From IMG/VR virus record IMGVR_UViG_3300027896_000011, positions 1 through 64,000 of that record: a stretch of DNA of 64,000 nt; one strand, given 5' to 3'. A program made the translations under genes and the position numbers. A model generated the notes under the pieces. The model was given only the letters and a program-made list of their open reading frames with translations, was not told where the DNA came from and did no database searches. The DNA is from a virus. This document shows, one piece after another, positions 7,917 through 29,642 of the stretch. Position 1 is the first letter of the stretch. Every line of letters starts with the position of its first letter.

Positions 7917-8308
7917 TGTCTAAACAAGCAAGCGTTTCATACACTTCTAGTGGAGAAGTATCCGTAAATTACGGAGAAGGAACAACTGGGGATACGGCTC
8001 TTAATCTAGAAATGCGTCGGATGATCAGTGACGCGTATGTGTTTGTCAGGGGTAATGATTGGAATAAATATGCAGCTAATCTAAGTTATGAGGAGTTGTT
8101 GGCATTAGCTATTGATCGTATTGATGGTAGCCAACAAATGGGCAATACTCGTGCTACTAGACTGGATAGAATAACTCGTATAAAGAATGATATAGCAACT
8201 GCGGTAACTACGGTAAAGAAGAAGCCACCAAGTGCATGGGGCTTTGCGGCTTATGATCAAGAACAAGAAGTAAGTAATGTGAATACAGCAGAAAATGAGA
8301 CACCTTAG
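7916..8308 (+). CDS. Hypothetical protein (baseplate cluster)
   Basis: Start overlaps the upstream stop (TGATG). Confidence 0.6.
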   Translation: MSKQASVSYTSSGEVSVNYGEGTTGDTALNLEMRRMISDAYVFVRGNDWNKYAANLSYEELLALAIDRIDGSQQMGNTRATRLDRITRIKNDIATAVTTVKKKPPSAWGFAAYDQEQEVSNVNTAENETP

Positions 8309-8310
8309 TT

Positions 8311-13287: not shown

Positions 13288-13625
13288 TCTTCTGGACCGT
13301 CTATAAGAGGGACAGTAGGAACAAATGCTTTACCTAAGTTACCCATTTTCAAAAGGATATTAGTGTGTGGGTCAAAAAGGCATTCGCAGTCTTTACATTT
13401 AAGGAGGAATCTAGGTAGCGGATCTTCTGGAATAAACAAGGTTTTGGGGTTTGCAACCTTAGTGAAAGTGCCCCCTCCACAACGTAAACATTGTCGGCTT
13501 TTATAAAAAGCATCTCGCTTTTCAACAAGGGGGCCGAGAATGTCTTTTTTACCTTCGAGTAGTTTTATCGTTATGCGTGGGTCTGCAGGTTTTAAATCCA
13601 TTGACCTAGAGTACCGTGTCAACAT
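13284..13625 (-). CDS. Small zinc-ribbon protein
   Basis: CLRCGG and CKDCE pairs; fills the gap between two + strand genes. Confidence 0.6.
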   Translation of the reverse strand: MLTRYSRSMDLKPADPRITIKLLEGKKDILGPLVEKRDAFYKSRQCLRCGGGTFTKVANPKTLFIPEDPLPRFLLKCKDCECLFDPHTNILLKMGNLGKAFVPTVPLIDGPED

Positions 13626-13682
13626 ACACTTTGTCGAGGCCTCAATGTGCTTACGAATAACAATTAGGCAGGAATACTAACC

Positions 13683-16574
13683 ATGGCAGGTTGGGGCTCA
13701 GGTTTATGGGGCGGTATGTTATGGGGGGCAGGAACCACCGAACGGGTCTTGCATATTCCTACTTCTTCCGACTTTACTCTTGCGGATGTAAGTGGGACGC
13801 AGCTAGCTCCATTTGTTTCATACGTAGAGGTAAATGCTACTAATGGTGTTCCTTGGATAACCTATGACGCTTTAACGCAGCAGTTAGTTCTTACTAGTAA
13901 CGCAGATATTTATACTTCTACTCAGATACAGGTCCCAACAACTAATACTTGGACATTAGAAGTAACCTTTCAGCCGTTATCATTGCCGACTGGGTTTACT
14001 AATTTAAACGCAAATAGATTATTTTTTGGGGCGTTCAATGCACAAGGACTTGGCGGAGGAATAGTTGTATCTCGAGAAGGTATAGCTATTGTAGATATTC
14101 TCACTGGGACGGCTTTTTCAATTCCTGGTAGTCAGAATCTTATAGCTGAGGGGGCAGATCTTTATACGTTGCGCATTGTTATGCTCGATGAAAAGATGAA
14201 CGTCTATATCACTAAAACGAGCTTACTTCCTATTAGTGGGCACGTTTTAAGATATACCGTTTATGCCTCTAATTCTCCAGCAGGAATTAGCGATGGCATG
14301 CTTATAGACCTACAGGGGTCTACTGCTAAAGATGTAACGATTGTTGCTAATGCAGTTAGATTCAGCAATCTTGCTTTGATTCCAAATAACAGGCCTATAG
14401 CAGTTCCTGGAGCGGATAGTGTTATAGCCTTAGGTTCTCTTGCTAATTTTGATGGGTCTGCAAGTTATGACCCGGAAGGGGAACCAGTAACATATTTGTG
14501 GTCCTTAATTGGAGTCACAAATGAAACAGTATTTAAAATTAATGGCACGGGGGGCAATAGCCCAGTAGGACATCCATATCTTTGGGCAGTAAGTAGTGAT
14601 GTTTTTAGCTCAACAGCTGCTCCTTTACTTCAACCTGGAGATACGCTTGTAGTTAGTGATGTGGCGTATACTGTGGCTATAGGAGAGCCTGGGCAGCCAC
14701 CTATGTGGGAAATTACTCCTAATTCGTTAGGTAAGTATTTGAGGGTATCTGGGGTATGGTCTGATGATACTATAGCTTTAACAGCACCTATAGCGCATAC
14801 TGCAACGAGCAGATCTTGGGCATTGTATTACTCTGCTACTTTCTTTAACGATCAAACTAGAGGAGTTACTTTTGCTACTCCTGATGTTGTAGGAGCGTAT
14901 AAAGTACAGTTAGTAGTTAATGATGGTCAGTTAGATAGTTTACCTGCGTGGCTTCTTGTAGATGTTTCTTTTACAGCAGCTACGTTAGGGGTGATTCCAG
15001 ATGTAAGTTGGATTTGGAGTCATCTTACAGATTTTATGAATCTATTAGAAGACCGGGATGTAGTAGAGAGGGTATGGTCTGGTTTTGCTCAAGGTGCAGC
15101 TAATGTTCTTATGACTGCCTGGCAAATTGATTATAATAAGAGTCTTAAAGACATTCAGAAGGTTTTTCAAAAGCGATGGCTTTCTTATCAGTTATTGGTA
15201 GCAGTAGATAACGATGCTGTTATTAGTGGAAATACTGTAACGACAGCAGCTTACGATCTTACAGTTTTTAAAGTACAGGCAGGAGATTTCGCTAAGTTTC
15301 AAGTAACGTCTACTGTTACAGGGTATATTCAATACGTTGTATGTCCTATACTTTCTGCTGGGCAGTATTCTTTTCAGTTTAATACTACTCCATTAGATCT
15401 GGTGTACGCTGGGTACTCGAGTAACTACACTGTTGTATTTTTTGGGGTATTAAAAGCTACTGTTTTACCAGTTTCTCCTTTAGTTGTGAATATTCCCCGA
15501 CTACAAGAGATTATTGTAGACCCACCATCATATCTTACGCAAAATCAAGATTATCATATTGATCGAACTAGTCATGTTGGCTATGTTGATATTGTATTTG
15601 AGCCAAATACGTATACGACATTAGATTATCCTCCGGATAAGTTATGGGCAGAAATTACGTATCTTGATAACAATCTTACTATCGAAGCTAATTTTGGCAG
15701 TCTAGTAGATTTAACGATAGAGGATTTTGTAAACAATACTGCGCAGTCAGTAGATAAGATTGACTATCTTTCTGCTGTTCGTGGATTATGGTATGCGTAC
15801 TTTGGTGGTCCTTCTTTTCAGAAGGTACAAGTAGGGACTCAGATTCTTTTAGGTCTTCCTTTTGCGGAGGAAGAGGGAATAGTTAGGACATTAGATCTGA
15901 ATTTTAGTCCTACTATGGGTAGGATGTTTCTAGAGGATGTTAAAGATAATACAGTAGTACGTGGTTACACGTTTGATTTGATCCCAGATCATAAGGAAGA
16001 TAGCGTAGCAATTAATACGCGTACCGGATCACCAATAAAAGTAGGAGATACGATTGGGCAGTTTGAGCCTCTTTGTAAGGGAGTTGAAGTAATAGATTAT
16101 GTAAAAGATCTTATGTGGCCTGCATCATATAGCGGGTCATTTAAAGAAATACAAAAGTTTTTCATGTTTTTGGTCAGAGTGAATGTAGATGTATTTGACC
16201 AGAAAAATCTAATTTTCGCTCTGAACTTCATTCGTAAGATCAAGCCCCACTACACACATCTATTGTTTGCTGTGCTTAAGGACGTAGACAGATGTGAGAT
16301 TGATATTCAAGAATATACCAATATGACCGTCTATCGACGGGTAGTAACATCTACAGATACAAAGAATATTGGCGGATATAGATGGGATGATAATATAGCT
16401 GGTGATTCTTTTGTCTCACCATATGCTTCTCTTAAAACAGATGGAGAAACATTTCAACATTATGATGCAGATATACCATTCTTACATGATCGACCAATTT
16501 TATTTCCTAATTCGATAGTGAGTATATACCTACATCAGATCAGCACCGATATCTATACTTTGATCGATTTATAA
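13683..16574 (+). CDS. Baseplate/tail protein with LamG-like and PKD-like domains
   Basis: WTLEVTFQP (LamG-like), FDGSASYDPEGEPVTYLWSL and GAYKVQLVVNDG (PKD), C-terminal FIRKIKPHYT (tail protein I/gp7-like). Confidence 0.65.
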   Translation: MAGWGSGLWGGMLWGAGTTERVLHIPTSSDFTLADVSGTQLAPFVSYVEVNATNGVPWITYDALTQQLVLTSNADIYTSTQIQVPTTNTWTLEVTFQPLSLPTGFTNLNANRLFFGAFNAQGLGGGIVVSREGIAIVDILTGTAFSIPGSQNLIAEGADLYTLRIVMLDEKMNVYITKTSLLPISGHVLRYTVYASNSPAGISDGMLIDLQGSTAKDVTIVANAVRFSNLALIPNNRPIAVPGADSVIALGSLANFDGSASYDPEGEPVTYLWSLIGVTNETVFKINGTGGNSPVGHPYLWAVSSDVFSSTAAPLLQPGDTLVVSDVAYTVAIGEPGQPPMWEITPNSLGKYLRVSGVWSDDTIALTAPIAHTATSRSWALYYSATFFNDQTRGVTFATPDVVGAYKVQLVVNDGQLDSLPAWLLVDVSFTAATLGVIPDVSWIWSHLTDFMNLLEDRDVVERVWSGFAQGAANVLMTAWQIDYNKSLKDIQKVFQKRWLSYQLLVAVDNDAVISGNTVTTAAYDLTVFKVQAGDFAKFQVTSTVTGYIQYVVCPILSAGQYSFQFNTTPLDLVYAGYSSNYTVVFFGVLKATVLPVSPLVVNIPRLQEIIVDPPSYLTQNQDYHIDRTSHVGYVDIVFEPNTYTTLDYPPDKLWAEITYLDNNLTIEANFGSLVDLTIEDFVNNTAQSVDKIDYLSAVRGLWYAYFGGPSFQKVQVGTQILLGLPFAEEEGIVRTLDLNFSPTMGRMFLEDVKDNTVVRGYTFDLIPDHKEDSVAINTRTGSPIKVGDTIGQFEPLCKGVEVIDYVKDLMWPASYSGSFKEIQKFFMFLVRVNVDVFDQKNLIFALNFIRKIKPHYTHLLFAVLKDVDRCEIDIQEYTNMTVYRRVVTSTDTKNIGGYRWDDNIAGDSFVSPYASLKTDGETFQHYDADIPFLHDRPILFPNSIVSIYLHQISTDIYTLIDL

Positions 16575-16592
16575 TATTAATGATGTATACCG

Positions 16593-16621
16593 TAGACAGT
16601 GTTGGCTATAAGTTCTATAAG
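16593..16621 (+). promoter_or_regulatory. Possible promoter TAGACA-N17-TATAAG
   Basis: Lies in the intergenic gap before the 16651 gene, with canonical spacing. Confidence 0.35.
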
Positions 16622-16650
16622 TGCGCTATACTGCATAATGAGAGGTACTA

Positions 16651-17343
16651 ATGTTTTCTACTTGCATACACGCCAAATCGAATATGTTCTTAACCGCGAG
16701 AGAGCGTGGGAAGTTGGTGCCTGCAATGTGCAGGGAAAGCCATAACATATGGGTAGATCTTGGTAAGATGTTCCTACCATATGTCATTTCACCTACTGCA
16801 GGTTTTGCTGGACGGGTGGATAATAGCGTTATCAAATACATAGGCTTTGGTATCGGCGGAAATAAACAAACAGTAGATATTGCTACTTTATATCCGACGC
16901 TAAATGCAGATTATCCAGGACAAAAAACTTATGATAAAGAGACGCATACCATCACTACTTTAGAGCGTCCAGTGCTTGTAACAGGTACTGGTGGGTCAGG
17001 AGGTAGTGGCACTTGGGCAGGAACAGTAACCGCTCCGCCGACTTTTATTTCTCCTAACAATGATGGAATAAATTCTACAGTAGAGTTTATTACTGCTATA
17101 AATGAACAAGCTGTCAATCTAAGTGGAGCATACCCCGCAGTACCGCTTAGTGAGGCTGCTTTGATCTTATCTAGCCAAGTAAATAGTATAGTTGGGGCAG
17201 CTACTGCTAGTGTGTATGACTATTCAGATCCTCCTGGGTACATTGGAGCAGGCAGAGCTACATTAGTGGCATACAACAACTTTGCGCCGGTAACAAAGAC
17301 AACAGATATAGCTTTTGAACTACGTTGGCTTTTAGAGTTCTAG
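16651..17343 (+). CDS. Baseplate/tail-fibre attachment protein
   Basis: HNIWVDLG, IGFGIGG, SEAAL and FAPVTKT...ELRW pattern seen in proteins preceding myophage tail fibres. Confidence 0.55.
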   Translation: MFSTCIHAKSNMFLTARERGKLVPAMCRESHNIWVDLGKMFLPYVISPTAGFAGRVDNSVIKYIGFGIGGNKQTVDIATLYPTLNADYPGQKTYDKETHTITTLERPVLVTGTGGSGGSGTWAGTVTAPPTFISPNNDGINSTVEFITAINEQAVNLSGAYPAVPLSEAALILSSQVNSIVGAATASVYDYSDPPGYIGAGRATLVAYNNFAPVTKTTDIAFELRWLLEF

Positions 17344-17352
17344 GAGATAATT

Positions 17353-19242
17353 ATGGCAACTGGACTTCCATTTCCGCATGGTGATGGCCCTGGGCAAATA
17401 GGTCACCAGGCGGATATAAGTAAAACTGATACTCCTACTTCTACTGGAGGCAGGTTCGTAGGTTTTGCAGAAATAGGTACCTCAGCTATATCTAATCGAG
17501 CAGCTTGGGCTCTATCTACTAATATCAATTACTTGTATGAGAAGGTTGTTGCTAATTCTTTAGCTGTTAATACAAGTGTAAGATTCACTTCAGTAGGAAT
17601 AACTTCATATACTTTAAATGGAGTTGTTTTCTGCGGAGATAATACATACCCAGGTGATGCAGAAGGATTACGTGCTCTTTTTTCAGTAGTAGATTTAATG
17701 GGCAATAGCCTTTTAGACACTTCTGGAAATGTAGTAGGTATTTATTCCGTTGTAGGTGGCTCTAATAGTAGTGTTTACAAACAAGGATTCATTACGAATC
17801 CTAAAGTATATTTTTGTACGTATGATATTTATGGCAATGTAGCAATATCGCCTTACACAATACCAAATAGTACTGTATTGCGATTGATTTATTCTGTACA
17901 GAGTTCCTTAGAGAGTCTACCTACGGATGCACTAACTAGGTATGTTTCACTTGGAATTGAAGACGCATTTCCTCTTGGTGTTGTATTACAAGATGGCACT
18001 AGGGCAATGACAGGGAATTTAAATATAGGTAGCCACAACATATATAATTGTCAGGTTATGAATAGTACAGCTGTGAATTGTACTAATGTGACTTGTTCAG
18101 ATATATTTGGATTAAATACAGGCGCTATTCTGAAAGCGAATAACGTTTTTACCATAACACCTACGCAAGGAACGGTAGCAACACTTACAGCTAAGTATAC
18201 TGTTAATCCTGCAGAGTCTGGTATAGTAAAAGATCTCGCTAAGCTCAGTTTAGCTGGAGGTGACGCATACACATCACGTTCTTCTATTACTTTGCAGGGC
18301 AACCCAAAGAGTGGAACATCTAAAACACGTGTATTGTGGAATGTAACTGATACTACACAAACGCCATTGGGGATGACGCTTGTATTTGATCCTACAAATC
18401 TTTATTTTGGTCCTTATGACCAAACATCCTCAAATATGTCCCTAGGAAATCAGGATCATCCTTGGTCTACGTTATGTGCTAATCTTGTAAATGCAACGAC
18501 TGCAGTTATTATTGATAGTCTTGTAGTCAATTTTGATCATTTACAAGTAGAGGATAAAAATGTTGAATATTTTTATAGACTGCCCTCTCCGCAAGATTAT
18601 CATTTTATGCAAGATTTTGGTAATGCGTCATTAAATGTAATTACTGGTGGGGGAGATATGTATGTGTCTGCTATTGATGATGCATTTTATGTGTGGACTG
18701 AAATGAATGGGCAACAACCATCTCAAGTGATGGCAACTTCACCTGTATTTGGGCGAAGTACTTTAGCAATGATAAACCCAAGTCTGTTTGGTTCATATCA
18801 AGCAAGTATTGTAGGACCGACTATAATCTCACCAAATAATAATTTTTTTACTTTACGTACAAGTATATGCTTTGGGACTGATATAGGGAATAAAGGTTGT
18901 CTTTTAGGATTTTATTATGATGTGTATACGAATCTTCATGCAGTGGAAATAAGTATTTCTAGTACTCATATTGTAGCTAGAACGTATAATAGGGCAGGTG
19001 CAGTCACAAATACACAATCATGGTATGGAGCACCACCAACTTCACAGTTTATCGATATTACTATAGCGTTTACGCCATCTAATGTTTCATTATATACTTC
19101 TCATGGGGAATATGTAGAGTTTGCATTTGTTCCAACACAAAGTAATCCCTTAACTCCAATATTGACTGCAACGAATGGTCCAATATCGGTGGATTATATA
19201 GAGTTATACTCTGAAGGGCATTTAGTACGCCCAGCTTGGTAA
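17353..19242 (+). CDS. Tail fibre / receptor-binding protein
   Basis: Fibre motif DGTRAMTGNLNIGSHNIYN; Thr/Ser/Asn-rich; C-terminal lectin-like beta domain. Confidence 0.65.
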   Translation: MATGLPFPHGDGPGQIGHQADISKTDTPTSTGGRFVGFAEIGTSAISNRAAWALSTNINYLYEKVVANSLAVNTSVRFTSVGITSYTLNGVVFCGDNTYPGDAEGLRALFSVVDLMGNSLLDTSGNVVGIYSVVGGSNSSVYKQGFITNPKVYFCTYDIYGNVAISPYTIPNSTVLRLIYSVQSSLESLPTDALTRYVSLGIEDAFPLGVVLQDGTRAMTGNLNIGSHNIYNCQVMNSTAVNCTNVTCSDIFGLNTGAILKANNVFTITPTQGTVATLTAKYTVNPAESGIVKDLAKLSLAGGDAYTSRSSITLQGNPKSGTSKTRVLWNVTDTTQTPLGMTLVFDPTNLYFGPYDQTSSNMSLGNQDHPWSTLCANLVNATTAVIIDSLVVNFDHLQVEDKNVEYFYRLPSPQDYHFMQDFGNASLNVITGGGDMYVSAIDDAFYVWTEMNGQQPSQVMATSPVFGRSTLAMINPSLFGSYQASIVGPTIISPNNNFFTLRTSICFGTDIGNKGCLLGFYYDVYTNLHAVEISISSTHIVARTYNRAGAVTNTQSWYGAPPTSQFIDITIAFTPSNVSLYTSHGEYVEFAFVPTQSNPLTPILTATNGPISVDYIELYSEGHLVRPAW

Positions 19243-19243
19243 C

Positions 19244-20158
19244 ATGTCAACTAAACTTCTTAAGCCTCGTGTAATTGCAGAGCCCTTTAGTGAGAACCAA
19301 GCTCAAAGTGTGCCTGGGGCTCAACTTATGGGTACTCGCATGGACGCCATTCAAGGGGATGCTGCTGGAGCAGTAGAAAAGGGTGCTGACTTCGATGGTG
19401 GAGGGTTCTTAGGTGACGGTACTAAATTACAACCAGCCTTGAATAGAATTTGGAAAGTAGGGCATGTAGTTAAACGTGCGATGTATTCTACATACGGCAT
19501 AGAAGATATGGACGCTACATATCAAAGTCGTCTTAATCCTGCTATTAAAGATAATAGAGCTACAGACGCTGGTACTCGAGAAACCTCTTTAACTCGCCGG
19601 GGAGATGATATACCGATAGATGTAGCGCATACAGACCAAAGTCACCTAGGTCCTATTAATCCAGGCGGTAATCTACAGACCACATCAGATGTAGGAGTGC
19701 AAGGGGCCGGAGTAGGTACAGGAGAGATGGAAGATAATCCTGTAACTGAGGTAGAAGAGGCAGGGCCACAAAGAGCTCGTATAAGGCAAGCTAAGGGGCT
19801 TGATAAGCGAGCTGCAGTGGCTAAGGCATGGATAGCCACCCAAACCTCTCCGGCGTTATCAAAGCTCGCACAGGTGCTGCAGGAGCGAGCTTATGATGCT
19901 ATGGATGCTGGTCCTGAACCCCCTTATGAGGGTCCTCCTATACGTTTCAAGATGCCAGGGCAAGTAAGACCAATGCATAAGGAGAGTGATGCAGAGGCTC
20001 AGCCGGGAAGAATAGAAGCAGCTACACAGGCTATGTTTGAGCCATTAGAGCCGATACAGTCGTCTAATCCTCTTGCGGAAGTAAAGAGAGACGTACTTGA
20101 TACTCGTAAAGCTGTTAAACTGGTCCGGAAGATATTAAATGATCAGCCGTTAATTTAA
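19244..20158 (+). CDS. Hypothetical low-complexity protein with K-x-A motifs
   Basis: 304-aa ORF with KRA and KLA motifs. Confidence 0.55.
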   Translation: MSTKLLKPRVIAEPFSENQAQSVPGAQLMGTRMDAIQGDAAGAVEKGADFDGGGFLGDGTKLQPALNRIWKVGHVVKRAMYSTYGIEDMDATYQSRLNPAIKDNRATDAGTRETSLTRRGDDIPIDVAHTDQSHLGPINPGGNLQTTSDVGVQGAGVGTGEMEDNPVTEVEEAGPQRARIRQAKGLDKRAAVAKAWIATQTSPALSKLAQVLQERAYDAMDAGPEPPYEGPPIRFKMPGQVRPMHKESDAEAQPGRIEAATQAMFEPLEPIQSSNPLAEVKRDVLDTRKAVKLVRKILNDQPLI

Positions 20159-20163
20159 TGGCT

Positions 20164-20184
20164 AAGAAAAACCCAGGTGGGTTT
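20164..20184 (-). terminator. Intrinsic terminator
   Basis: Minus strand AAACCC-ACCT-GGGTTT followed by TTCTT. Confidence 0.6.
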
Positions 20185-20253
20185 AGTGGTGAGGACACAC
20201 CTAGGAGGTTGGAGAACCATGGTGCAGCTAGCAGCGAAGATGTATCCTCACCA
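20164..20253 (-). ncRNA. Candidate ~90-nt small RNA: 16-bp stem with an anti-RBS/anti-start-codon loop
   Basis: Arms 20187-20202 and 20238-20253 pair fully on the minus strand (two G-U pairs). Own promoter at 20259-20287 and terminator at 20164-20184. Confidence 0.6.
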
Positions 20254-20258
20254 AAGTA

Positions 20259-20287
20259 CTTATACCCTGATAAGTTTATTATTTGCT
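20259..20287 (-). promoter_or_regulatory. Phage-consensus promoter AGCAAA-N17-TATAAG
   Basis: One of five copies of the same motif. Confidence 0.65.
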
Positions 20288-20292
20288 AGCTA

Positions 20293-20318
20293 ACAAAAGT
20301 CACGAGTGTGACTTTTGT
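20293..20318. terminator. Bidirectional intrinsic terminator
   Basis: ACAAAAGTCAC-GAGT-GTGACTTTTGT perfect inverted repeat. Confidence 0.7.
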
Positions 20319-20336
20319 AGACGGGGGACTGGAGAA

Positions 20337-20399
20337 TTATTTGCCTTTTACTGTATGTAACGCAGGCATTCCCTTCTTTCCCCAGGTCTTTTTCAGCAT
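20337..20399 (-). CDS. Possible 20-aa micro-ORF MLKKTWGKKGMPALHTVKGK
   Basis: Start overlaps the end of the upstream micro-ORF. Confidence 0.25.
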   Translation of the reverse strand: MLKKTWGKKGMPALHTVKGK

Positions 20400-20518
20400 T
20401 TCCAGTTTTCCAACTCAATTTCCAGATCGTCAGCTAGACGATCTAGAGCCATCTGGTCTAAGCCAGATGACTGCTTAGATTTGAATACCTCCTCTAACTC
20501 TAACTTTTGTTTTGTCAT
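20393..20518 (-). CDS. Possible 41-aa micro-ORF MTKQKLELEEVFKSKQSSGLDQMALDRLADDLEIELENWKC
   Basis: Starts 1 nt after the stop of the 20520-20594 ORF. Confidence 0.4.
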   Translation of the reverse strand: MTKQKLELEEVFKSKQSSGLDQMALDRLADDLEIELENWKC

Positions 20519-20519
20519 G

Positions 20520-20594
20520 TTACACCAGGAAGTAAATTGCGGTGAATACTATCAAAAATGTCAAATCCCATTTGTAGATCATGTTTTTGAACAT
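20520..20594 (-). CDS. 24-aa hydrophobic micro-protein MFKNMIYKWDLTFLIVFTAIYFLV
   Basis: AGGAGG RBS 6 nt before the ATG, directly behind the promoter at 20613-20642. Confidence 0.55.
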   Translation of the reverse strand: MFKNMIYKWDLTFLIVFTAIYFLV

Positions 20595-20612
20595 GGTTTT
20601 CCTCCTATATGT

Positions 20613-20642
20613 CTTATACCGTTAATAGGAGTAGAATTTTCA
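20613..20642 (-). promoter_or_regulatory. Phage-consensus promoter TGAAAA-N18-TATAAG
   Basis: Motif copy followed by an RBS and ATG. Confidence 0.65.
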
Positions 20643-20658
20643 TAGCTATGATCAAAAA

Positions 20659-20686
20659 GAAAGGGGGACGGTTAGTCCCCCTTTTT
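20659..20686. terminator. Bidirectional intrinsic terminator ending the replication operon
   Basis: AAAGGGGGAC-GGTTA-GTCCCCCTTT with A/T tracts on both sides. Confidence 0.8.
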
Positions 20687-20885
20687 AAATTGAATGTCTA
20701 CGAATTAATGAGATGATCTTCTCTTTAGTAGATACGTCGTCATCTGTTTGATAGATCACTAATCCATTTAACAGATTTTGTAACTCCTCTACATTTAAAG
20801 TATCAAGTTGCTGAGAAGGGATACACTGTGTTTCATTTGTAGTGGGAGCCCTAAGTCCATAAGTATTAGGGCTTATTCTTTTCCC
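20685..20885 (-). CDS. -1 frameshift extension (~64 aa) of the 20873-21373 gene
   Basis: Slippery G GGA AAA at 20885-20879, 5-nt spacer, 8-bp stem at 20847-20873; the -1 frame stays open up to the terminator. Confidence 0.65.
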   Translation of the reverse strand, partial: GKRISPNTYGLRAPTTNETQCIPSQQLDTLNVEELQNLLNGLVIYQTDDDVSTKEKIISLIRRHSI

Positions 20886-21373
20886 GGTTCAAAATCATTA
20901 TTGGCTTTTGTGATTTCAGCGTCTACATCAGCTGGTTCAAGGTCAGTAGTACCAAGGAACATTTTAAGCATAGCCATGAGCACATAGACTTGTCGTTGAA
21001 CGTCAATAACTTCTGACTTTAGATTCTTTTCCAACTCATCTACTGCTAATCCAAGTTTATCGATACGAGTAATAACAGCATTCTCTTCTTTCTTGGAAGT
21101 TTTAGTAGGCTTTTCTGTAGGGGTTGGAGCTACCTCTTCAGATACCTCTTCCGTCTCTGGTTCAGGCTCTGGAACTGACTTCAAGCTAGTTGTCTTTTTA
21201 CCAGGTTTTGTCTCAGCTGCGCCACCTTGCTTGCTAAGAATGAATTCAATTAGGTCTTTGGATGCAGCATTTACTGCTTCTTTTGGGGTCATACCAAATT
21301 CGTCACTAACTGCTAATGTACGAATTTCAGATCTGCGTAGTCCTTCGAGTTCTTCACGTGTGTAATTAGCCAT
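20873..21373 (-). CDS. Protein with N-terminal Rho-N/HeH-like motif, acidic linker and coiled coil
   Basis: YTREELEGLRRSEIRTLA...KDLIEFIL. Confidence 0.65.
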   Translation of the reverse strand: MANYTREELEGLRRSEIRTLAVSDEFGMTPKEAVNAASKDLIEFILSKQGGAAETKPGKKTTSLKSVPEPEPETEEVSEEVAPTPTEKPTKTSKKEENAVITRIDKLGLAVDELEKNLKSEVIDVQRQVYVLMAMLKMFLGTTDLEPADVDAEITKANNDFEPGKE

Positions 21374-21602
21374 TTCGGTGTCTTCTCCTCATTTTCGGCG
21401 ATGCACTCTTTACTGTTTGTAATTTAGGATTTTCGAATCTGAGCGCCCAAGATCCGAAATCCCTTTCAATCTGAAAACGTGCATTCATTTCACTTTCGGC
21501 TACACGTTCCCAGGCACTGCAATGGTACCCTGTTACTATTTTATTTTCATCAACTACCGAACAATCTTTTAGATGTCGGCATGATGTACACGCCCTCATC
21601 AC
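21366..21602 (-). CDS. Small Cys-containing hypothetical protein
   Basis: CTSCRH..C...HC; coupled to both neighbours. Confidence 0.6.
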   Translation of the reverse strand: MMRACTSCRHLKDCSVVDENKIVTGYHCSAWERVAESEMNARFQIERDFGSWALRFENPKLQTVKSASPKMRRRHRNG

Positions 21603-21970
21603 GAATCTCTTTTTCCCCGCACCATATCCGCTTTATTCATACGTCTAAAGCCTTCGTCATGATTAATAACAGCGCAGATAGCTACTCGAGCCGGTGGACA
21701 AAGAGGACAGAAGTAATCTTCAGATTTACACTTTAATTGCCCTAATATTGTGTCAGGGTGTGTCTCCTGCATGTAAAGCATTAGTTCTCGCTCATCATCT
21801 ATAGGGTCCGGACTATCTATTTCGTCCGGAGATATAGTACCTGTGAGTAATCCTGTCAATACCTCTCTTCCCATTCCACGGTGTGCAGAAAGATGTCCAG
21901 CCTTTTTGCATAGAGCAATCAGTTCGGTTACATTTAGTTCATCGAGAGGATGTACTTTCTCTAGCATCAT
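21599..21970 (-). CDS. Hypothetical protein with HeH-like N-terminus and Cys cluster
   Basis: LDELNVTELIALCKKAG; C.....CPLCP...C. Confidence 0.6.
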   Translation of the reverse strand: MMLEKVHPLDELNVTELIALCKKAGHLSAHRGMGREVLTGLLTGTISPDEIDSPDPIDDERELMLYMQETHPDTILGQLKCKSEDYFCPLCPPARVAICAVINHDEGFRRMNKADMVRGKRDS

Positions 21971-22403
21971 ATTGTTCCTTAGTCAGACCCACTAGGTCCT
22001 CAGTGATAGGTTGCAGGGATATATACATCCCTGGATGTTCCGGATCACAATGTTTCTCCAGAACCAACCTGAAGTTATGCTCATCCCCTATACCTATTGC
22101 CTCAGAAATGGTGTCCTCTATGAGCTTAACTTGGTTGCTAAGATCTATACGCTTATACCGCATTCCCTTCGTAGATTTCAGGTACTCAACTTGATCAAAG
22201 AATACACTTAAGCGTAGCTCATATGGTACGTTCTCTTTAAGCCCCAAAAATGCTGCTCTACCATCTTGTTGAATAGCTCGCATAGCAAAGACTTTAAACG
22301 CCCTTGCCTCTGGAGATAGAAACCGTCCCTTCCCTGGGATGTTTATGTATATTTTGTTGGATGATGGGGGTAGTTTATCTATCCACACACGTAGTTGGCT
22401 CAC
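21939..22403 (-). CDS. RusA-like Holliday junction resolvase
   Basis: PPSSNKIY and RIDLSNQVKLIEDTI...GIGD match the RusA DxDNxxKxxxD pattern. Confidence 0.75.
   Translation of the reverse strand: MSQLRVWIDKLPPSSNKIYINIPGKGRFLSPEARAFKVFAMRAIQQDGRAAFLGLKENVPYELRLSVFFDQVEYLKSTKGMRYKRIDLSNQVKLIEDTISEAIGIGDEHNFRLVLEKHCDPEHPGMYISLQPITEDLVGLTKEQYDARESTSSR
22152..22180 (-). promoter_or_regulatory. Intragenic phage-consensus promoter TGAAAT-N17-TATAAG
   Basis: Full motif match inside the RusA-like gene, upstream of the last three operon genes. Confidence 0.5.
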
Positions 22404-22999
22404 TGACGACCTCTCCGGAAAACAGAAAGAACATCACTTCTAGCTGGACCAGCTTTGAAATTATTGGCTTTACGTTCTCCTGTATACCTATGCCCATCAA
22501 CATTACTATTATGCTCACAACCAGTAATAACCCTAGAGATAGTCTCTATGTCCCGGTATAACCCCTCCGTAATGGCTTTGAGCATAGTATATTTGTATTC
22601 AGCTGTTTCAAGGTCTGCATTGAGCTTGATGTACCGTAGGTCTGTACGTGTAGCATCATCTTTATCAGATACTGTCTTCTCGGCTGATTTCTCTCTTCTG
22701 ATTTTAGCCCAGGCAAAATCTCTAGCAGACTCTGCTGTATTCTTTGTTATACGGGCTTTAGGAACTAGGCTATTAGAGTAGTCATACCATGCTGTATACC
22801 AGTTTAGTAGGTCTAGTAACTGAGACATAGTCAAGTCGCTTATACGTTCTGGTAGATAAGGTCTATCTGCTAGGTCTCCATCACGTCTAGGTCTTTCTGC
22901 TTGAGGAAAGCCCATCATGGACATGTCTGCGTCTCCTTTGTCTACAGCCTGTGCGTACAAAGATATCCCTTGTCCATATTCTGCTTCAGTGATTGGCAC
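22400..22999 (-). CDS. Helical protein, possibly a UvsY-like recombination mediator
   Basis: KTVSDKDDATRTDLRY...ISRVIT; located near the RecA gene. Confidence 0.45.
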   Translation of the reverse strand: MPITEAEYGQGISLYAQAVDKGDADMSMMGFPQAERPRRDGDLADRPYLPERISDLTMSQLLDLLNWYTAWYDYSNSLVPKARITKNTAESARDFAWAKIRREKSAEKTVSDKDDATRTDLRYIKLNADLETAEYKYTMLKAITEGLYRDIETISRVITGCEHNSNVDGHRYTGERKANNFKAGPARSDVLSVFRRGRQ

Positions 23000-23878
23000 T
23001 TACTCCTCCTTTCGTCGATCACTTCGAAAGATAGTTGCTGCAAGTGGCCCTCTTGATTTTCCAGGAGGTTTACAGATTTTGGCGTATTTACAGTTCTTAC
23101 AAGTAGAGCCTATTTCCTGTTTTGGCTCTTTATTATTCATTGCACAATCACGTACATAATCTAGTTTATCCGTAATGGCTTTCCATCGATGCTCATCAAA
23201 CTCCATAACATATTCAGCTAGACTTGAATCATTTTTGTTATAGTACAAAAAGATCATTACCGGTAAGTCTAAACAAGCCTGATACACGGTCCCTTGCATT
23301 ATGTGTTCTGCATGTGGACCATTGGTTACTTTAAACCCATCCGTATTGATGGTCTTTATTTCTAGTCCGGCTCTAATATGTGCAGCAGGAGTGTTTACTT
23401 CGTACAGCCCGTCCATGTGCGCGGAGATATCATATTTATCTGCTATGATATTGTTCTCCGGACAGATTTTTACTTCATCTTCAAACTTCTCTGTCTTCTT
23501 GTGCTTCTTTGCGTACGCTATTAAATACAGCTGTAGCTGTAAGTGTATAGCTGAACCGGTATCAAAAATACGACGAAGTCTCGGATCAAATGACTTCTCA
23601 ACTTTAGCTCCAATATACCCATAATAGAGGGCTCTACCACAGCCCATTGGGTAATTACCGTCTAATGTCTTTCCAGTTAGGCTACCTATTTCTGAAGCGT
23701 GGAAGATGTGACTTCTTCGTGGAGCGTCTCCTATACATAGTTCACCACGCATTTGCAGAGGTTCTATATTTAGGTCTTCTAGGAAGGACTCAATGCGGTC
23801 TTTAATTACTATATTCTGTAGTATGCTTCTATCAAATTCCCTGCTTTGCGCAGTAGTCAGCAATTCGGCTGTATTCAT
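23000..23878 (-). CDS. Cas4/RecB-like PD-(D/E)XK exonuclease with Fe-S cysteines
   Basis: CGRALYY, GSAIH, HMDG, LEIKT, QGTVY and CKNCKYAKIC. Confidence 0.8.
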   Translation of the reverse strand: MNTAELLTTAQSREFDRSILQNIVIKDRIESFLEDLNIEPLQMRGELCIGDAPRRSHIFHASEIGSLTGKTLDGNYPMGCGRALYYGYIGAKVEKSFDPRLRRIFDTGSAIHLQLQLYLIAYAKKHKKTEKFEDEVKICPENNIIADKYDISAHMDGLYEVNTPAAHIRAGLEIKTINTDGFKVTNGPHAEHIMQGTVYQACLDLPVMIFLYYNKNDSSLAEYVMEFDEHRWKAITDKLDYVRDCAMNNKEPKQEIGSTCKNCKYAKICKPPGKSRGPLAATIFRSDRRKEE

Positions 23879-24417
23879 TTAAATTTCTCCATGAGTTCGA
23901 GGAACAGATCATAAGACAGTGTTACATATCGTTTGTCTAGCTTACGGAAGTTCAACACTAAAGCAGGTTTCTCTCCTGAGAGTTTAGCGTGTCTTGCAAC
24001 AGCTTCTAAGTCGCTGCTGTGAAGTGTGTAGCTTTTGACACTGTCTGTATATTTGTGTTCAAACCTCCACTCACCATGTACTCGAACATCATCTTTGGCA
24101 TCTTGATTTCCAGAACCTGGCTGTACAACACCATCGACGTCTATTGCTAGATTTCGTTCCATTTCTCTAGATAGGCGTACTCTTCTTGCAGCTCTTCTTG
24201 CAGCTTTTTTTGCTACTTCAGCGTCTGCATATTTGACATCGAATTTTATTACGTGGCCATTATCTTGACACTGATCACACAGACGGAAGTCTTGTAGAAT
24301 ATCTTCCGTCTGTGCGTTCCTAAGTACATACCTGGTACTTTCTCTAACTTTTCCGCAGCCATTACAGGAGAGGCCAAAACCTATGTATCTGATACCTAGT
24401 TCCAGGTTTGTACTCAT
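23875..24417 (-). CDS. Hjc-like PD-(D/E)XK resolvase/nuclease with N-terminal Zn ribbon
   Basis: MERNLA...PGSG...DV...FEHKYT...PALVL; CNGC and CDQC. Confidence 0.7.
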   Translation of the reverse strand: MSTNLELGIRYIGFGLSCNGCGKVRESTRYVLRNAQTEDILQDFRLCDQCQDNGHVIKFDVKYADAEVAKKAARRAARRVRLSREMERNLAIDVDGVVQPGSGNQDAKDDVRVHGEWRFEHKYTDSVKSYTLHSSDLEAVARHAKLSGEKPALVLNFRKLDKRYVTLSYDLFLELMEKFK

Positions 24418-25721
24418 TACTTGTACCTTATGTGCCCCTGTCCTGCGAACTTAATAGCCTCGATTCGTAAAAGAGATTGAAAGTCATTATCCTCTTCAAT
24501 TCGTCTTTGCATTTCTTCTTTACTACCGAGCTTCATTTCTCCTAATAGGAAACCCACTTTTGAGCCTCCATAGGTTATGATGTTATTAGTAACACAGTAA
24601 TTTTCTAAGTCAGCAGCAACATCAATTTGCGGAGGATTGAAATAATAGTTATATGTTCCAGTTAGTCCTTCGTGGGTACCTGCCTTACCTTTGGTCAGTT
24701 CCCATACGATCTCTTTACCTACATCTTTATCTTTAACTGTAATGGCCTTCCCTTTACGTAGTTGTATATCGATCATCTTTCCATGACGAAGAGCATAGGC
24801 TCCTGTGGTCTTATACTCCCTGGCGTGCCCATACTGCTTCAGATTAGCCCGGACTTGACGAAGACCAATGATAGTAGTTTCATTCTCCCACATATATGGG
24901 CGTTGGCCTTCCCAAGAGCAGTCTCCATTCCCACATTTATATGAGTAATTACCTTTGCCGAAGAGTTTAAAACCTAAAGGTCTATTTAAACATTCAGGAC
25001 ATATTTTTTGTGGAGAAAGAGCACCAAAGACTTTTCTCATCCAACGGGTTTGTACGTTAGATGCGTCAGCTACTTTGGCATTATCTTCCAGTTCTTTATT
25101 TTCATCAGCAATAGTCAGCATGGCGTCCCATGAGTCTATGCCTATGATCTGATAGGCGTTACAAGCTACCCAATCTACAACACCCTCTAGGATTTTCTCT
25201 GCTGCAGCACCACGGAATACATGGAAGTTTCCGATCTGTTCTCGAAATTCATCTGCTTCTTCAGAGGTGAGTTCAGGTTGTCCTTTTAGATGTCGTTCTC
25301 TACCTATTGCTTCTATTTCGTAGTTAGATAGAGCTACTTTTACACCTATAGCTCTAGCAAATAGCTTATCAAAAGCCCCTTCTAAACAAACCATGCCTAT
25401 GTTGGTACTGCCTCTGTGTATACGTTGCTGATTGGCCAGGTAGTGATTAAGAAGTAGGTTCTTTCCAATACCATCTAGCCCATCAATTTGAGAGAGGCCC
25501 CCAGCAGGAAGGCCTCCACCACAAGCAATGTCTAATTGTACAATACCACTAGGTCTACGCAGATCGAAACGCCCTTCAATCTCCTCCCCACGCTGTAGAA
25601 CAACTGCATCCCCACCTAACTTTGCTTGAAGGGCGTCTAGTAGTTCATTGGTGTCTGTTCGTGGAATTTTATTGCGGTCTATGACTTTTGTTTCAGTTAC
25701 TTCCTTTTTAACTTTCGCCAT
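24417..25721 (-). CDS. recA: RecA/UvsX-like recombinase
   Basis: PSGIVQLDIACGGGLPAG, Walker A GLDGIGKN, Walker B IIGIDS, QVRANL, TTGAYALRH, KGK. Start moved to MAKVKK (25721). Confidence 0.8.
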   Translation of the reverse strand: MAKVKKEVTETKVIDRNKIPRTDTNELLDALQAKLGGDAVVLQRGEEIEGRFDLRRPSGIVQLDIACGGGLPAGGLSQIDGLDGIGKNLLLNHYLANQQRIHRGSTNIGMVCLEGAFDKLFARAIGVKVALSNYEIEAIGRERHLKGQPELTSEEADEFREQIGNFHVFRGAAAEKILEGVVDWVACNAYQIIGIDSWDAMLTIADENKELEDNAKVADASNVQTRWMRKVFGALSPQKICPECLNRPLGFKLFGKGNYSYKCGNGDCSWEGQRPYMWENETTIIGLRQVRANLKQYGHAREYKTTGAYALRHGKMIDIQLRKGKAITVKDKDVGKEIVWELTKGKAGTHEGLTGTYNYYFNPPQIDVAADLENYCVTNNIITYGGSKVGFLLGEMKLGSKEEMQRRIEEDNDFQSLLRIEAIKFAGQGHIRYK

Positions 25722-25887
25722 TGACACTCTCTTGCTTTTTTGTAGGTTCCTTTTCGTATGGAAGGCTGCCCTTCTCATCATCTAGTGGGATATTGGCGTC
25801 AGGGTTATTTGATAAGTTCTTCCCTGCTATTTTTTCTTGTTCCACTTTCTTTGGGTCGATCACTACTGCATATTTTTCCATCTGCAT
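25708..25887 (-). CDS. 59-aa protein MQMEKYAVVIDPKKVEQEKIAGK...GSLPYEKEP...
   Basis: AAGGAG RBS; bridges the HU and RecA genes; has a KIA motif. Missed by the ORF track. Confidence 0.55.
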   Translation of the reverse strand: MQMEKYAVVIDPKKVEQEKIAGKNLSNNPDANIPLDDEKGSLPYEKEPTKKQESVNGES

Positions 25888-26215
25888 TCTCCTTCGGTAA
25901 GTATTGGTTTATTACGTCTGGCTCCTGAAACAAAATTACGGAATTCCTAACTCCAAATTTTAGTGTTGTACAAGGCTTGAACCTTATTCTACGTCTAGCT
26001 TTAGTCCAATACCGTTCTCCGGTTTTGTAATTACGGACAGAATGAGGAGCTGCAGGTACGTTAAAGAACGTACCTACAGTATTCCATTTTACATTCTGTC
26101 CTCCAGTGAGCGCGTTATGTATTGTTGCTGCAACGATTCTTAGCAGTTTCCTAACTTCACGCTTGGTGTAGTTAGTTTCTTCAGATACTTTTGTGACTAA
26201 TTCTGAATACGTCAT
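25805..26215 (-). CDS. HU/IHF-family DNA-binding protein
   Basis: MTYSELVTKVSEET...VGTF...RNYKTGE...ARRRIRFKPCTTLK. Confidence 0.85.
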   Translation of the reverse strand: MTYSELVTKVSEETNYTKREVRKLLRIVAATIHNALTGGQNVKWNTVGTFFNVPAAPHSVRNYKTGERYWTKARRRIRFKPCTTLKFGVRNSVILFQEPDVINQYLPKENADGKICSSDRPKESGTRKNSREELIK

Positions 26216-26216
26216 A

Positions 26217-26756
26217 TTAACCTTTGGCTGTAGCCCAACTATAACCACTACCACCATCAACATTTAACGGAACGGAAAGATCAAAAGGAAGTGGATGTTC
26301 CATTTTATGTTTGATGATTGGTAGCGCCTCTTCTACGGATTCTTCAGGTACCTCGAAAATAAGTTCATCATGTATTTGGAGAAGCATTTGTACTCCCAGA
26401 TTTATTAAAGTTTGATCAAATTCACATGATATCATAGCTCTTCTAGCTACATCTGCTGCAGAACCTTGAATGCGTGAATTAACTGCTTGGCGTTCTGCTC
26501 TAGCTAATTCTCCACGTTCTCTACCAGTCATCGCACTACGGTACATTCCTCCAAGAGTTTCCATACCTGGAAATCTACGAGGACGGCTGGTAACAGTACG
26601 GACCATGTGTTGCTCACGTATCGCTCTATGAGTATCTTGTATAAATTGTCTAACTTTGGGGTATGGACGGAAATAGTCTTCAATTTTGACTTTAGCGTCA
26701 TTTACAGATATGCCGAGGCTGTGTGCAAGTTTATTTGGACCTTCACCATAGGTTAA
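26217..26756 (-). CDS. polA: Family A DNA polymerase, exon 2
   Basis: LTYG (end of motif B), ERQAVNSRIQGSAAD, motif C QIHDEL. Confidence 0.9.
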   Translation of the reverse strand, partial: LTYGEGPNKLAHSLGISVNDAKVKIEDYFRPYPKVRQFIQDTHRAIREQHMVRTVTSRPRRFPGMETLGGMYRSAMTGRERGELARAERQAVNSRIQGSAADVARRAMISCEFDQTLINLGVQMLLQIHDELIFEVPEESVEEALPIIKHKMEHPLPFDLSVPLNVDGGSGYSWATAKG

Positions 26757-27034
26757 CGTACTAATCCCAAGTTTCCTTGGGTACTGACTATACCTTTGAA
26801 GAGCATTGGAGTTGAGTAGTTTCCAATTACGTAACATTTTGCTCTTCTTCCACCGTATCAACAAGAAAACGTGAATGACTACACTGCTTGATTGATCAAG
26901 CTTCTTGTTGAGGACATCCTCCGGTGTCCAAGTCGATACACTACCCTTATTGGGCAGCACGGGATTGCCTTGTGCAAATGCATTTAGGTTTCCCCGTTTT
27001 GAGTGGATTTTACTTCGGCTTAACACATCGGTCT
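26757..27034 (-). ncRNA. Group I self-splicing intron (278 nt, no homing endonuclease) in polA
   Basis: Exon 1 ends in U and the intron ends in G. P1 CUUCGGU/GCCGAAG with U-G; core AAAACGGGGAA / AAUCCCGUGC / UCGACU / AAGGUAUAGUC; P9 CCCAAG-GAAA-CUUGGG. Splicing restores KTVGFG|LTYG in frame. Confidence 0.9.
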
Positions 27035-28429
27035 ACCGAAGCCGACTGTCTTGCTAGCTTGTCGGGCAAAACACATAGCTTTTTCAGTATCATTGAGTAT
27101 TGCTTCTGGGTTCTTTTTTTTCTTTAATGCCTTATTTAGCTCATCATAATCATACCCGTACATCATGCAGGCGGTACCTGCATGAATATCCCAACCACGG
27201 TTTATGACTCCTATCATGTTCTCGTCATTAGCCCCATGTGCCAGTAAGCGCATTTCTAGTTGGCTATAATCTAGTACGATAAACCGGTATCTGTGTTTAG
27301 GAATAAATGCTTCACGTAAGTGATATATATCGTTATCAGGACGAGGAATATTTTGAAGGTTAGGATCAGTGGAACTTAATCTTCCGGTAACCGTCACATG
27401 TTGTGTAAGTGTTGGATGTATTCTTCCATCTGGATCTGCACACTTAGAAAGACCTTCTACATACGTGCTTTTGATCTTATTAACTTTGCGTAGTTGTGAA
27501 ATCAATTTACATACTTCTACACCCTCTTCCGCATATATGTTTAATGTGCTTTCATCTGTAGAGGGTAACTGCCCTTTAGTCTTTTTGATTGGTTTAAGTT
27601 TGAGCTTATCAAAAAGTAGCCAACGAAGTTGGGCAGTACTTCGTAAGTTGATCTCTTTTCCTGCCACTTTATTAATCTTCCGTTCGAGACGAACAATTGC
27701 ATCGGACATCTGAGGTTTTAAGTCTTCTAGATACCCGGTATCGACCATAATACCTCTTCGGATCATATTGTAAAGCACCCGTGTAAAAGGCATCTCAACT
27801 TCTTGAAAGTAATCCCATAAAGAGATGTTATCTACCATCTCTTCCGCAGCTAGACGTTCTCTTAGTACATCTTTTACCTTGAATGTGGCGTAGGCGTCTA
27901 GTGAAGCGTAATTGATAGCAGCCCTGAAATCTTCTTTAAGTCCGCGAAGAATACGAGTTTCAGTGCTGTCATCTTTAAACTTCTTTGCAAAGGTATCTTT
28001 GAAACTGGCCATGTTCATGTTGCAGTAATCTAGAGCAGTTTCTTTTAAACCATGGCAGCCTTGTCTGTTCTCATCATGCAGCCAGTCCATTGCAAGAGTA
28101 CAGTATGCGTTACCGATGGGGGCGCGTACTCCTGAGTTAGCTAGCATACAGAAATCGAATGTCATATTAGTGAGCCACCAAATCATGTTTGGGTCTTGAG
28201 AAAGTTCGGCATCAAAGATGCGTAACATGTCTCTACTGAAGCAGTATCGTTTTTCCGGAGAAGGACAAGCAGACCAAACTACAATATGATCTTTCCAACG
28301 GTTAAGTCCTGTGGTTTCTGTATCTATTGCACACTCTCCAGTATCTTTAGCGTGCCTTATAAATTTCATCATCTCTTCCGGGGTGTCTACCCAAACTACT
28401 GGGGGTAGTGGTTGAAGAATTCCAGCCAA
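27035..28429 (-). CDS. polA: Family A DNA polymerase, exon 1 (3'-5' exonuclease and polymerase)
   Basis: IDTETTG, YASLDA, TGRLSSTDPNLQNIP, motif A DYSQLEMR, motif B RQASKTVGFG. Confidence 0.92.
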
Positions 28430-28456
28430 AGCGCGGCCCTCCTATGGGTGTTTTGG

Positions 28457-28494
28457 AAAGAAGAAACCCCGCCCTCTATTACTAGAGAGCGGGG
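28457..28494 (-). terminator. Intrinsic terminator after the SSB gene
   Basis: CCCCGCTCTCTA-GTAA-TAGAGGGCGGGG followed by TTTCTTCTTT. Confidence 0.75.
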
Positions 28495-28508
28495 AGTTTA
28501 TGCTGCTA

Positions 28509-29642
28509 TTACTTATTGTAATTAGCTTGCCCGTACTCACGAGCTTGTGGAGCTGAATCCCTATAAGGATTCCGTATTCCAAGTATTTCTGCCTGTACGT
28601 CTAGTGGGTCCGGGCAGAATATTTCAGGGAAGTTCCAAGGCTTTGCCATTTCCAACAAGTCCTCAGATAGTACAGTTGGTGTCCAGCGTACAATTTGGAC
28701 AGTTGAGCTAGCACCTTCTCCTTGTCGTTTAATGTCGAGGTCGCAGTCGTAGATAGAGCGTGGTTTCGGATCTTGACACACCTTATTTTTATTATTGCAT
28801 TCAAGCTGAGTCAGTAGCCATCCTGTATGACCACATTTGCATTTATACGGAGAACCCGTAATGCGATAGTATTCTGCTGATTGCGTTTCATCTGCAAGAT
28901 TGAAGTCATTTACAGAAATAATAGGCTTACCACATTCCTCGCAGTCACAGGTAATTTTCTCTATAGTTCCAATTCCGCCACAAGTAGCACAATCTTTCTC
29001 AATCTCGTCAATAGCACCAACTAGATTTTGTATGTGACCAAAGCCCATACTCCAATGTACTTTCTTACCAAAGCTCTTGGGTAGTTTATCGGCACAATAT
29101 TCACATTTACGGCCTGTACATGGCAGCCTGTTAGTGATTGGTTCGCCTTTACGCTTTCCATTTTCAAACAGAACAGGCTTACCGTCACGTACTGCTGGCA
29201 CATCGTGATACCAGTCTAGGTGTATTCCAGTGAAGGCGTGCATTACGCGCATAGAGACTGTGCGGTGATTTCTATCAACACCTTCTTTAGTCTCTTTCTC
29301 GAATTCGTCCCAACCTAGACAAGTGCCACCTATCTTTTCTGGACGACCATTAACTAGTGCCCATTCTCCGGAACTAACGAAGCTCTTACTAGTACGGGCG
29401 CTATAGAAAGAGATGTATTGGTAGTATTCCTTTTCTTCCCCCGCTAAGTCTTTATAGTTGCCGGGAACAAGACGGAATTTTGCTATTGTCCCTTTAGGGG
29501 GAGCCCATCTACAACCCCACCTAATGTTGAGAGATGCTCCTCTACTTTTATTACCTCCGCCGTTAAATCCTGCATTACGGCTCGCGATGTACCCATGTAG
29601 TCCCTGGGCGGTCGTAAGTCTTCTTGTTGGTGAGTATTCCAT
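28509..29642 (-). CDS. gp32-like single-stranded DNA-binding protein with Zn-finger insertions
   Basis: KFRLVPG, CEYC, DIKRQGEGASSTVQI; lies between primase and polymerase. Confidence 0.55.
   Translation of the reverse strand: MEYSPTRRLTTAQGLHGYIASRNAGFNGGGNKSRGASLNIRWGCRWAPPKGTIAKFRLVPGNYKDLAGEEKEYYQYISFYSARTSKSFVSSGEWALVNGRPEKIGGTCLGWDEFEKETKEGVDRNHRTVSMRVMHAFTGIHLDWYHDVPAVRDGKPVLFENGKRKGEPITNRLPCTGRKCEYCADKLPKSFGKKVHWSMGFGHIQNLVGAIDEIEKDCATCGGIGTIEKITCDCEECGKPIISVNDFNLADETQSAEYYRITGSPYKCKCGHTGWLLTQLECNNKNKVCQDPKPRSIYDCDLDIKRQGEGASSTVQIVRWTPTVLSEDLLEMAKPWNFPEIFCPDPLDVQAEILGIRNPYRDSAPQAREYGQANYNK

Follow-up and report, generated by a model that had tools for sequence, protein, structure and literature searches.

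Does the short stretch that separates the last late gene of a large uncultured freshwater phage from the oppositely oriented genes beyond it encode a functional RNA, and if so, from which strand and directed at what? The DNA analyzed here, positions 1-64,000 of a 168-kb IMG/VR virus record with a completeness estimate of 89%, is hereafter called the window; the phage belongs to a little-known group of large freshwater phages (168-188 kb) that have a phage RNA polymerase and many inteins. An earlier note on this DNA had placed at this locus a minus-strand sRNA gene with a loop directed against translation starts. The existence of a minus-strand sRNA gene is strongly supported by our results, through the promoter family to which it belongs, compensatory changes in six homologues and an asymmetry in G-U pairing between the two strands. 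The gene, of ~90-200 nt, is present in this phage and in five relatives, and from the comparison of these sequences it very probably gives rise to a functional minus-strand RNA. The family is new, with no Rfam match, and the class of regulator, the C-rich-loop antisense RNAs, is a known one; the mechanism, like the production of the RNA, its ends, its pairing with initiation regions and its targets in trans, is what we infer.

The convergent junction and its promoter

Structural genes, including those for Baseplate_J and PKD-domain proteins, occupy the plus strand from 160 to 20158, and minus-strand genes, with RusA-like and Cas4-type nuclease genes among them, extend from about 20393 to 40047. 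The last plus-strand (late) gene (19244-20158) encodes a protein of 304 aa, and its stop codon ends at 20158. The sRNA element is located 6 nt past this stop, with the minus-strand genes on its other side, and thus occupies a convergent junction. The last two late genes of this operon (17353-20158) occur in two forms, encoding proteins of 629 and 304/307 aa in the window and in P0003, and of ~750-770 and 445-454 aa in other relatives (L006, L009, and L003); a match to the Pfam family InPase (PF18823) is found in the last late gene of the long form only.

A hairpin with U-runs on both strands (20296-20318), read directly from the sequence and found at the same place in L006, forms a bidirectional terminator that closes an upstream minus-strand unit of small ORFs and, on the plus strand, the late operon. 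Read in the minus sense (20318-20296), it adjoins the sRNA promoter (20288-20259) on its upstream side, and the promoter is followed by the predicted sRNA of ~90 nt (20253-20164). The succession of terminator, promoter, stem-loop and terminator-like hairpin is therefore the layout of an independent small gene.

The promoter presents a -10 element TATAAG (20264-20259) and a -35-like element GCAAAT (20286-20281), with a spacer of 16 nt whose last three bases are GGG (20267-20265). The earlier note had described it as a consensus promoter. It is not a sigma-70 consensus, as GCAAAT matches TTGACA at two to three of six positions and the promoter is absent from the calls of a sigma-70 scan, but it is a member of a family specific to these phages. 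The motif GCAAA-N17/18-GGTATAAG has 19 sites in the 168-kb genome, compared with 0.75 in shuffled sequences, and most of these sites precede an ORF of their own strand by 8-90 nt. The stricter sequence GGGTATAAG occurs in 12 copies in the genome, ten of them with a G(C/A)AA(A/T) element 13-14 nt upstream, and the genome of a relative (G001) contains eight sites of the promoter family for 0.15 expected. Five family sites fall within the window, each on the minus strand and in or next to a block of non-structural genes, and the one at 40098 heads the replication block. Besides this one, examples are found at 20613, 22152, and 51629 (all minus strand), and a short conserved initiation region follows the -10 element. 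Another signal considered, UUUCUUAGC after terminators, is not a genome-wide signal in this genome.

Both promoter elements are kept at all six sRNA loci (alignment A2). The bases that follow the -10 element in the family conform to a pattern ending in TG(G), which in the sRNA coincides with the first bases of the stem, and transcription should therefore start at the stem base. The +1 position would accordingly lie at about 20253-20252, and the 3′ end would fall in the U-run 20168-20164.

Two further candidate non-coding RNA units were observed in the genome, at G000 117841-118090 (plus strand, L176) and G000 65118-64990 (minus strand, L177). Both consist of a family promoter followed by a strongly folded sequence and a terminator, with neither an ORF nor an Rfam match; one measures ~240 nt, the other ~120 nt with three hairpins.

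Stem, loop and functional strand in six loci

The five homologous loci (L006, L012, L157, L003, and L009) were reached via searches with the neighboring 304-aa protein; L006 comes from the 188-kb genome of an uncultured Caudovirales phage (NCBI record LR796294.1). Megablast and blastn searches against GenBank phages gave no DNA relatives, and pattern scans of IMG/VR retrieved only the L003 contig, the remaining matches being devoid of the inverted repeat. A scan of metagenomes with a looser pattern returned at least 120 stretches, and none of the matches listed contained the inverted repeat, so these must be chance matches to a pattern that was too loose. The comparative set therefore consists of six distinct sequences, which fall into two close subgroups. 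All five homologous loci have the element at the same convergent junction and oriented alike. With a covariance model of the minus strand (R1), one copy per genome was detected, and thus no sRNA paralogue. The element is absent from three distant relatives, in which the neighboring protein is 44-46% identical, and in other distant relatives the next gene starts 12-22 nt past the late gene, too close for the element to fit.

The minus strand of 20160-20256 is predicted to fold with -36.0 kcal/mol (z -4.9), a value equaled by none of 200 shuffles, into a stem of 16 bp, a loop of 35 nt and then a small second hairpin with a U-run. The plus strand folds less strongly (-32.9 kcal/mol, z -3.0). The arms of the stem (20253-20238 and 20202-20187) and the loop (20237-20203) are as the earlier note had described them, as are the two irregular pairs: the minus-strand stem consists of 14 Watson-Crick and two G-U pairs, and on the plus strand those two become A-C mismatches.

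This asymmetry extends to the whole set. Over all six sequences, the minus-strand stem contains ten G-U pairs and a single true mismatch, compared with one G-U pair and about ten mismatches on the plus strand; the true mismatch is an A-C in L157, where the plus strand would have G-U. Wobble positions that form G-U pairs in the minus-strand RNA and turn into mismatches on the opposite strand identify this RNA as the functional strand. Covariation in related phages, which had been suggested as a check, points in the same direction: 98.9% of the cells of the 16-pair stem are paired, five pairs are changed on both sides and seven are invariant, and these pairing and compensation values were reached by none of 500 column shuffles. 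When the partner was slid by one to three columns as a control, pairing fell to 31-54%. The R1 model gives scores of 65-90 bits on the minus strand and of 16-32 bits on the plus strand (73 and 24.5 bits, respectively, in the window). The compensatory changes, the G-U asymmetry and the R1 scores together indicate selection on the structure of a minus-strand RNA.

These observations also bear on the idea that there is no functional RNA at all, the palindrome being a by-product of terminator or promoter sequences, or else an element acting at the DNA level. The position of the element between two terminators at a convergent gene junction would fit such an origin. Nevertheless, we regard it as highly improbable, because G-U asymmetry and compensatory changes are the marks left by selection at the RNA level, the core of the loop is conserved, and loops of 35-70 nt are not terminator-like.

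The terminator proposed in the earlier note can be recognized in the window as a 6-bp hairpin (20184-20169) followed by the U-run UUCUU (20168-20164), but it is modest and below the rule of our terminator scan. An identical hairpin is present in L006, strong bidirectional terminators take its place in L157, L003, and L009, and L012 has no recognizable terminator.

No match at gathering thresholds was obtained with Rfam 15 over the whole window. In permissive scans (window 20100-20700 and L003), the element was overlapped by sub-threshold chance matches only, the best with 25.5 bits for a cut-off of 70, and the sole match above threshold was a tRNA at L003 4580-4652, outside the element. A tRNA-Met gene lies directly upstream of the sRNA on the same strand in L003 (4579-4690, minus strand) and in the homologous part of L009. 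The hairpin preceding this tRNA-Met is conserved, and its loop shows GAAGGAGG, which is SD-like and complementary to the CCUCC of the sRNA. A tRNA-like sequence is found upstream of the sRNA in L006 too, and the window has no tRNA.

The loop divides into a variable 5′ half (20237-20223) and a 3′ half containing a conserved 19-nt core (20222-20204), complementary to an SD, a spacer and a start codon, and two CUCC motifs. In alignment A2, the window, L006 and L012 form a subgroup with loops of 33-38 nt, within which the core is identical between the window and L006 and differs by one base in L012. In contrast, the 15 loop bases 5′ of the core are identical at 6 of 15 positions between the window and L006, and the promoter spacer diverges too. 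The earlier note had also envisaged a programmable guide, with a stem that is kept and a loop that varies; this agrees with the 5′ half of the loop, but not with its conserved 3′ half. L157, L003, and L009 form the second subgroup, with loops of 58-66 nt that have in common with the short ones only CUCCA and a CAU-purine-GU element. In L003 and L009, an inner hairpin displays CCUCC in its apical loop, and its stem differs by compensating changes. All six loops contain CUCC. The motifs have a mean unpaired probability of 0.80-0.84 in the window and of 0.46-1.0 across members, and each member has at least one motif with a value of 0.84-1.0.

The plus strand and the possible partners of the loop

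The earlier note had pointed to an exact complementarity between the loop and a translation start. This is true, and it restates what the plus strand contains: AGGAGG (20203-20208), GGAG (20212-20215) and the ATG (20219) of a 24-codon ORF (20219-20293). An SD and ATG are present on the plus strand in five of the six members, and the frame, the length (17 to 58 codons) and the peptide vary. In L009, the ATG is replaced by ATA and an in-frame stop follows two codons later, and in L012 the conserved stem bases fall in a different frame. No ORF is common to the six members on either strand, and no conserved hydrophobic peptide or membrane segment was found in their plus-strand ORFs. Therefore, 20219-20293 is probably not a conserved protein gene. 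A 43-codon ORF (20158-20289) that is coupled to the late-gene stop was considered and rejected, since a 1-nt indel shifts its frame in L006 and nothing comparable exists in other members.

One of the two models put forward in the earlier note, an antisense partner of this ORF as in type I toxin-antitoxin loci, finds no support as such a pair in these comparisons. Antitoxin RNAs of such systems include Sok, IstR-1 and SR4, and the phage sRNA resembles them in that its loop can pair with the ribosome-binding site of a very small ORF. It differs from them in that this ORF encodes no conserved hydrophobic peptide and, in two of the six members, is missing or out of frame; nor was a separate promoter for a toxin mRNA found.

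It is likewise very unlikely that the plus strand is the functional one, either as a tiny late gene whose ribosome-binding site is held in a hairpin loop or as a hairpin in the 3′ region of the late mRNA whose pair of GGA motifs would bind a CsrA-type regulator. The SD and ATG of five members and the reading of the stem region in the same frame in four would be expected of a tiny gene, every plus-strand loop has two GGA motifs 7-17 nt apart, and a similar SD-spacer-ATG arrangement heads two other 24-codon first cistrons in the phage. However, ten stem positions are mismatched on the plus strand and G-U on the minus strand, the conserved promoter is that of the minus strand with no plus-strand promoter seen, and the peptide is not conserved in length, frame or start.

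The arrangement GGAGG, A-rich spacer and ACCATG is observed at the head of short first cistrons of 24, 24, and 39 codons, located at G000 94657 (minus strand), window 20605 (minus strand) and G000 145629 (plus strand). Their stop codons overlap or abut the start of the next gene, so that they look like coupling leader ORFs. In the window, the cistron belongs to a minus-strand unit between two terminators (20393-20641) with its promoter at 20641-20613; it is a 24-codon ORF (20594-20520) whose C-terminal half is hydrophobic and which is coupled to one of 41 codons (20518-20393). The homologous peptide of L006 has 31 codons, and the two ribosome-binding sites are identical over 20 nt. The site in the window is partly complementary to the sRNA loop and was rejected as a target: at -16 to -19 kcal/mol, the duplex improves on the background by only about one standard deviation.

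The RNA may also act in cis, as a simple antisense to late transcripts that read through. In the pure form of this model, it would act solely on the 3′ end of plus-strand transcripts reading through from the late operon, the duplex being cleaved or the small plus-strand ORF silenced, in the manner of lambda OOP against cII. There is no plus-strand U-run after the hairpin 20184-20169, and late transcripts should therefore read through it; the window, L006 and L012 have no plus-strand terminator between the 304/445-aa gene and the element, and these transcripts should run on to the bidirectional terminator at 20296-20318, carrying the full complement of the sRNA. The complementarity is perfect (-51 to -81 kcal/mol), and the plus-strand SD and ATG stand at a natural spacing in the five members that have them. 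Nevertheless, we consider this explanation rather unlikely. In L157 and L003, the late gene and the element are separated by a terminator that has a U-run on the plus strand, which should leave little plus-strand RNA over the loop, and the ORF to be silenced lacks a start codon in L009 and lies in another frame in L012. Moreover, a pair in cis stays complementary without any conservation of its sequence, and yet the 19-nt core is frozen, which points to a partner in trans.

Lambda OOP and P22 sar are short phage RNAs with their own promoter and terminator, convergent to the neighboring operon, and OOP reaches into the cII coding region at its 3′ end. The phage sRNA shares with both the possibility of a perfect duplex with the transcript of the neighboring operon. 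In contrast to OOP, its predicted 3′ end (20164) is 6 nt beyond the late-gene stop (20158), without coding overlap, so that it overlaps only untranslated sequence or a non-conserved mini-ORF, and its conserved loop core suggests more than pairing in cis.

The other model of the earlier note, an RNA acting in trans against SD and start-codon regions, fits the invariant core and the exposed CUCC motifs, although no target was found for it. A genome-wide duplex scan gave -81 for the element itself and -39 for the next best site, inside the background tail. When the 416 SD-ATG sites of the phage were scanned, the cis site reached -51.4 kcal/mol and the best non-self site -26.6 kcal/mol, with no outlier. 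No extended match to the loop was found elsewhere in the phage genome or in G001. Mismatch scans turned up 11 matching nucleotides where a 97-aa gene begins (G000 100849, minus strand), a candidate that was rejected, with ~0.7 such matches expected by chance and no orthologue in G001. Across 185,579 species genomes (one genome per species), the complement of the loop core has seven scattered matches, and neither in the phage nor in these genomes does any trans target stand out. As the long-loop members retain little of the short-loop core beyond CUCCA, a single universal target is unlikely.

Staphylococci have several sRNAs with C-rich loops, such as RNAIII and the Rsa RNAs. The pairing of such loops with an SD and AUG is an established sRNA mechanism, exemplified by SprX, an sRNA carried on a staphylococcal pathogenicity island whose C-rich loop pairs with the SD and AUG of its target and blocks ribosome loading (PMC4005690). 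SprX and the phage RNA are both small RNAs borne by mobile elements, with a C-rich motif exposed in a hairpin loop. They have no relationship in sequence or in Rfam, the motif is CUCC/CCUCC in the phage and UCCC in staphylococci, and the phage sRNA is located on a large genome of lytic type, beside a late operon.

A phage Hfq-fold protein and the possible roles of the RNA

The genome that carries this sRNA also encodes a 102-aa protein (33369-33677, minus strand) with an Hfq/Sm fold preceded by an N-terminal helix. Its match to the Pfam family Hfq_1 is below threshold (22.7 bits for a cut-off of 27). It has, however, 67 relatives, and of the 55 aligned, 36 match Hfq_1 (best E-value 2e-8) and nine match Hfq; the family profile matches the Anabaena Hfq structure 3hfn with an E-value of 1.4e-5. 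The AlphaFold model (pLDDT 86) presents a long N-terminal helix and, at residues 44-101, an Sm-fold part composed of a helix and five strands. In Foldseek, the top matches of the model are the Hfq proteins of Caulobacter, S. aureus and Synechocystis (TM 0.6-0.83, rmsd 1.0-1.5 Å). According to this model, the protein has the Hfq fold; a G replaces the histidine of the Sm2 motif. A homologue is found in G001, itself a carrier of the sRNA, and the protein could possibly serve as a chaperone of the sRNA.

The Hfq-dependent sRNAs of enterobacteria have a terminator hairpin with a U-tail and a conserved single-stranded seed. The phage sRNA resembles them in its hairpin and U-tail, in its conserved seed and in the presence of an Hfq-fold gene in the same genome. 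The difference lies in the protein, which is encoded by the phage and has the additional N-terminal helix and the substitution in Sm2.

The same protein could instead be the destination of the RNA. The sRNA would then be a protein-binding or decoy RNA, either a ligand of the Hfq-fold protein or a mimic of the 3′ tail of the 16S rRNA, whose loop end, ACCUCCU, would titrate a factor or a defense nuclease that recognizes this tail. A conserved single-stranded loop core on a rigid conserved stem would suit such a role, as would the Hfq-fold gene, and the scans of the 416 SD-ATG sites and of the species genomes found no pairing target. We consider it unlikely, as the six loops have only CUCC in common and do not conserve the ACCUCCU heptamer, those of L006 and L012 ending in CCUCCG.

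The reading that we favor, and hold tentatively, is that the exposed CU-rich loop pairs with translation-initiation regions, mainly in trans. The promoter of the non-structural class would start transcription at the first base of the 16-bp stem. The stem would keep the loop open and present one or two exposed CUCC/CCUCC motifs, followed at natural spacing by an anti-start-codon, and the RNA would end at the hairpin and U-run or, in some relatives, at the bidirectional terminator. The loop would then pair in antisense with the SD and start region of one or more mRNAs, and this pairing would block ribosome loading or trigger cleavage, possibly with the assistance of the Hfq-fold protein.

A bolder and distinctly unlikely extension is that the anti-SD-like sRNA (CCUCC and anti-AUG) and the phage Hfq-fold chaperone form a self-contained riboregulation module, which would rival ribosomes for strong ribosome-binding sites as a class or act as a decoy for a factor of the 16S tail. 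If this were true, it would mean a global reprogramming of translation in infection instead of the control of a single gene.

For most sRNAs of lytic or uncultured phages, the support goes no further than a predicted hairpin; here it is comparative, coming from the promoter family, the compensatory changes and the strand asymmetry. If the RNA acts only in cis, it would be an OOP-like fine-tuner of the late operon, of ordinary interest. If its loop acts on ribosome-binding sites in trans, the phage would be steering translation by anti-SD pairing. Together, the sRNA and the Hfq-fold protein provide an entry point to RNA-based regulation in these phages.
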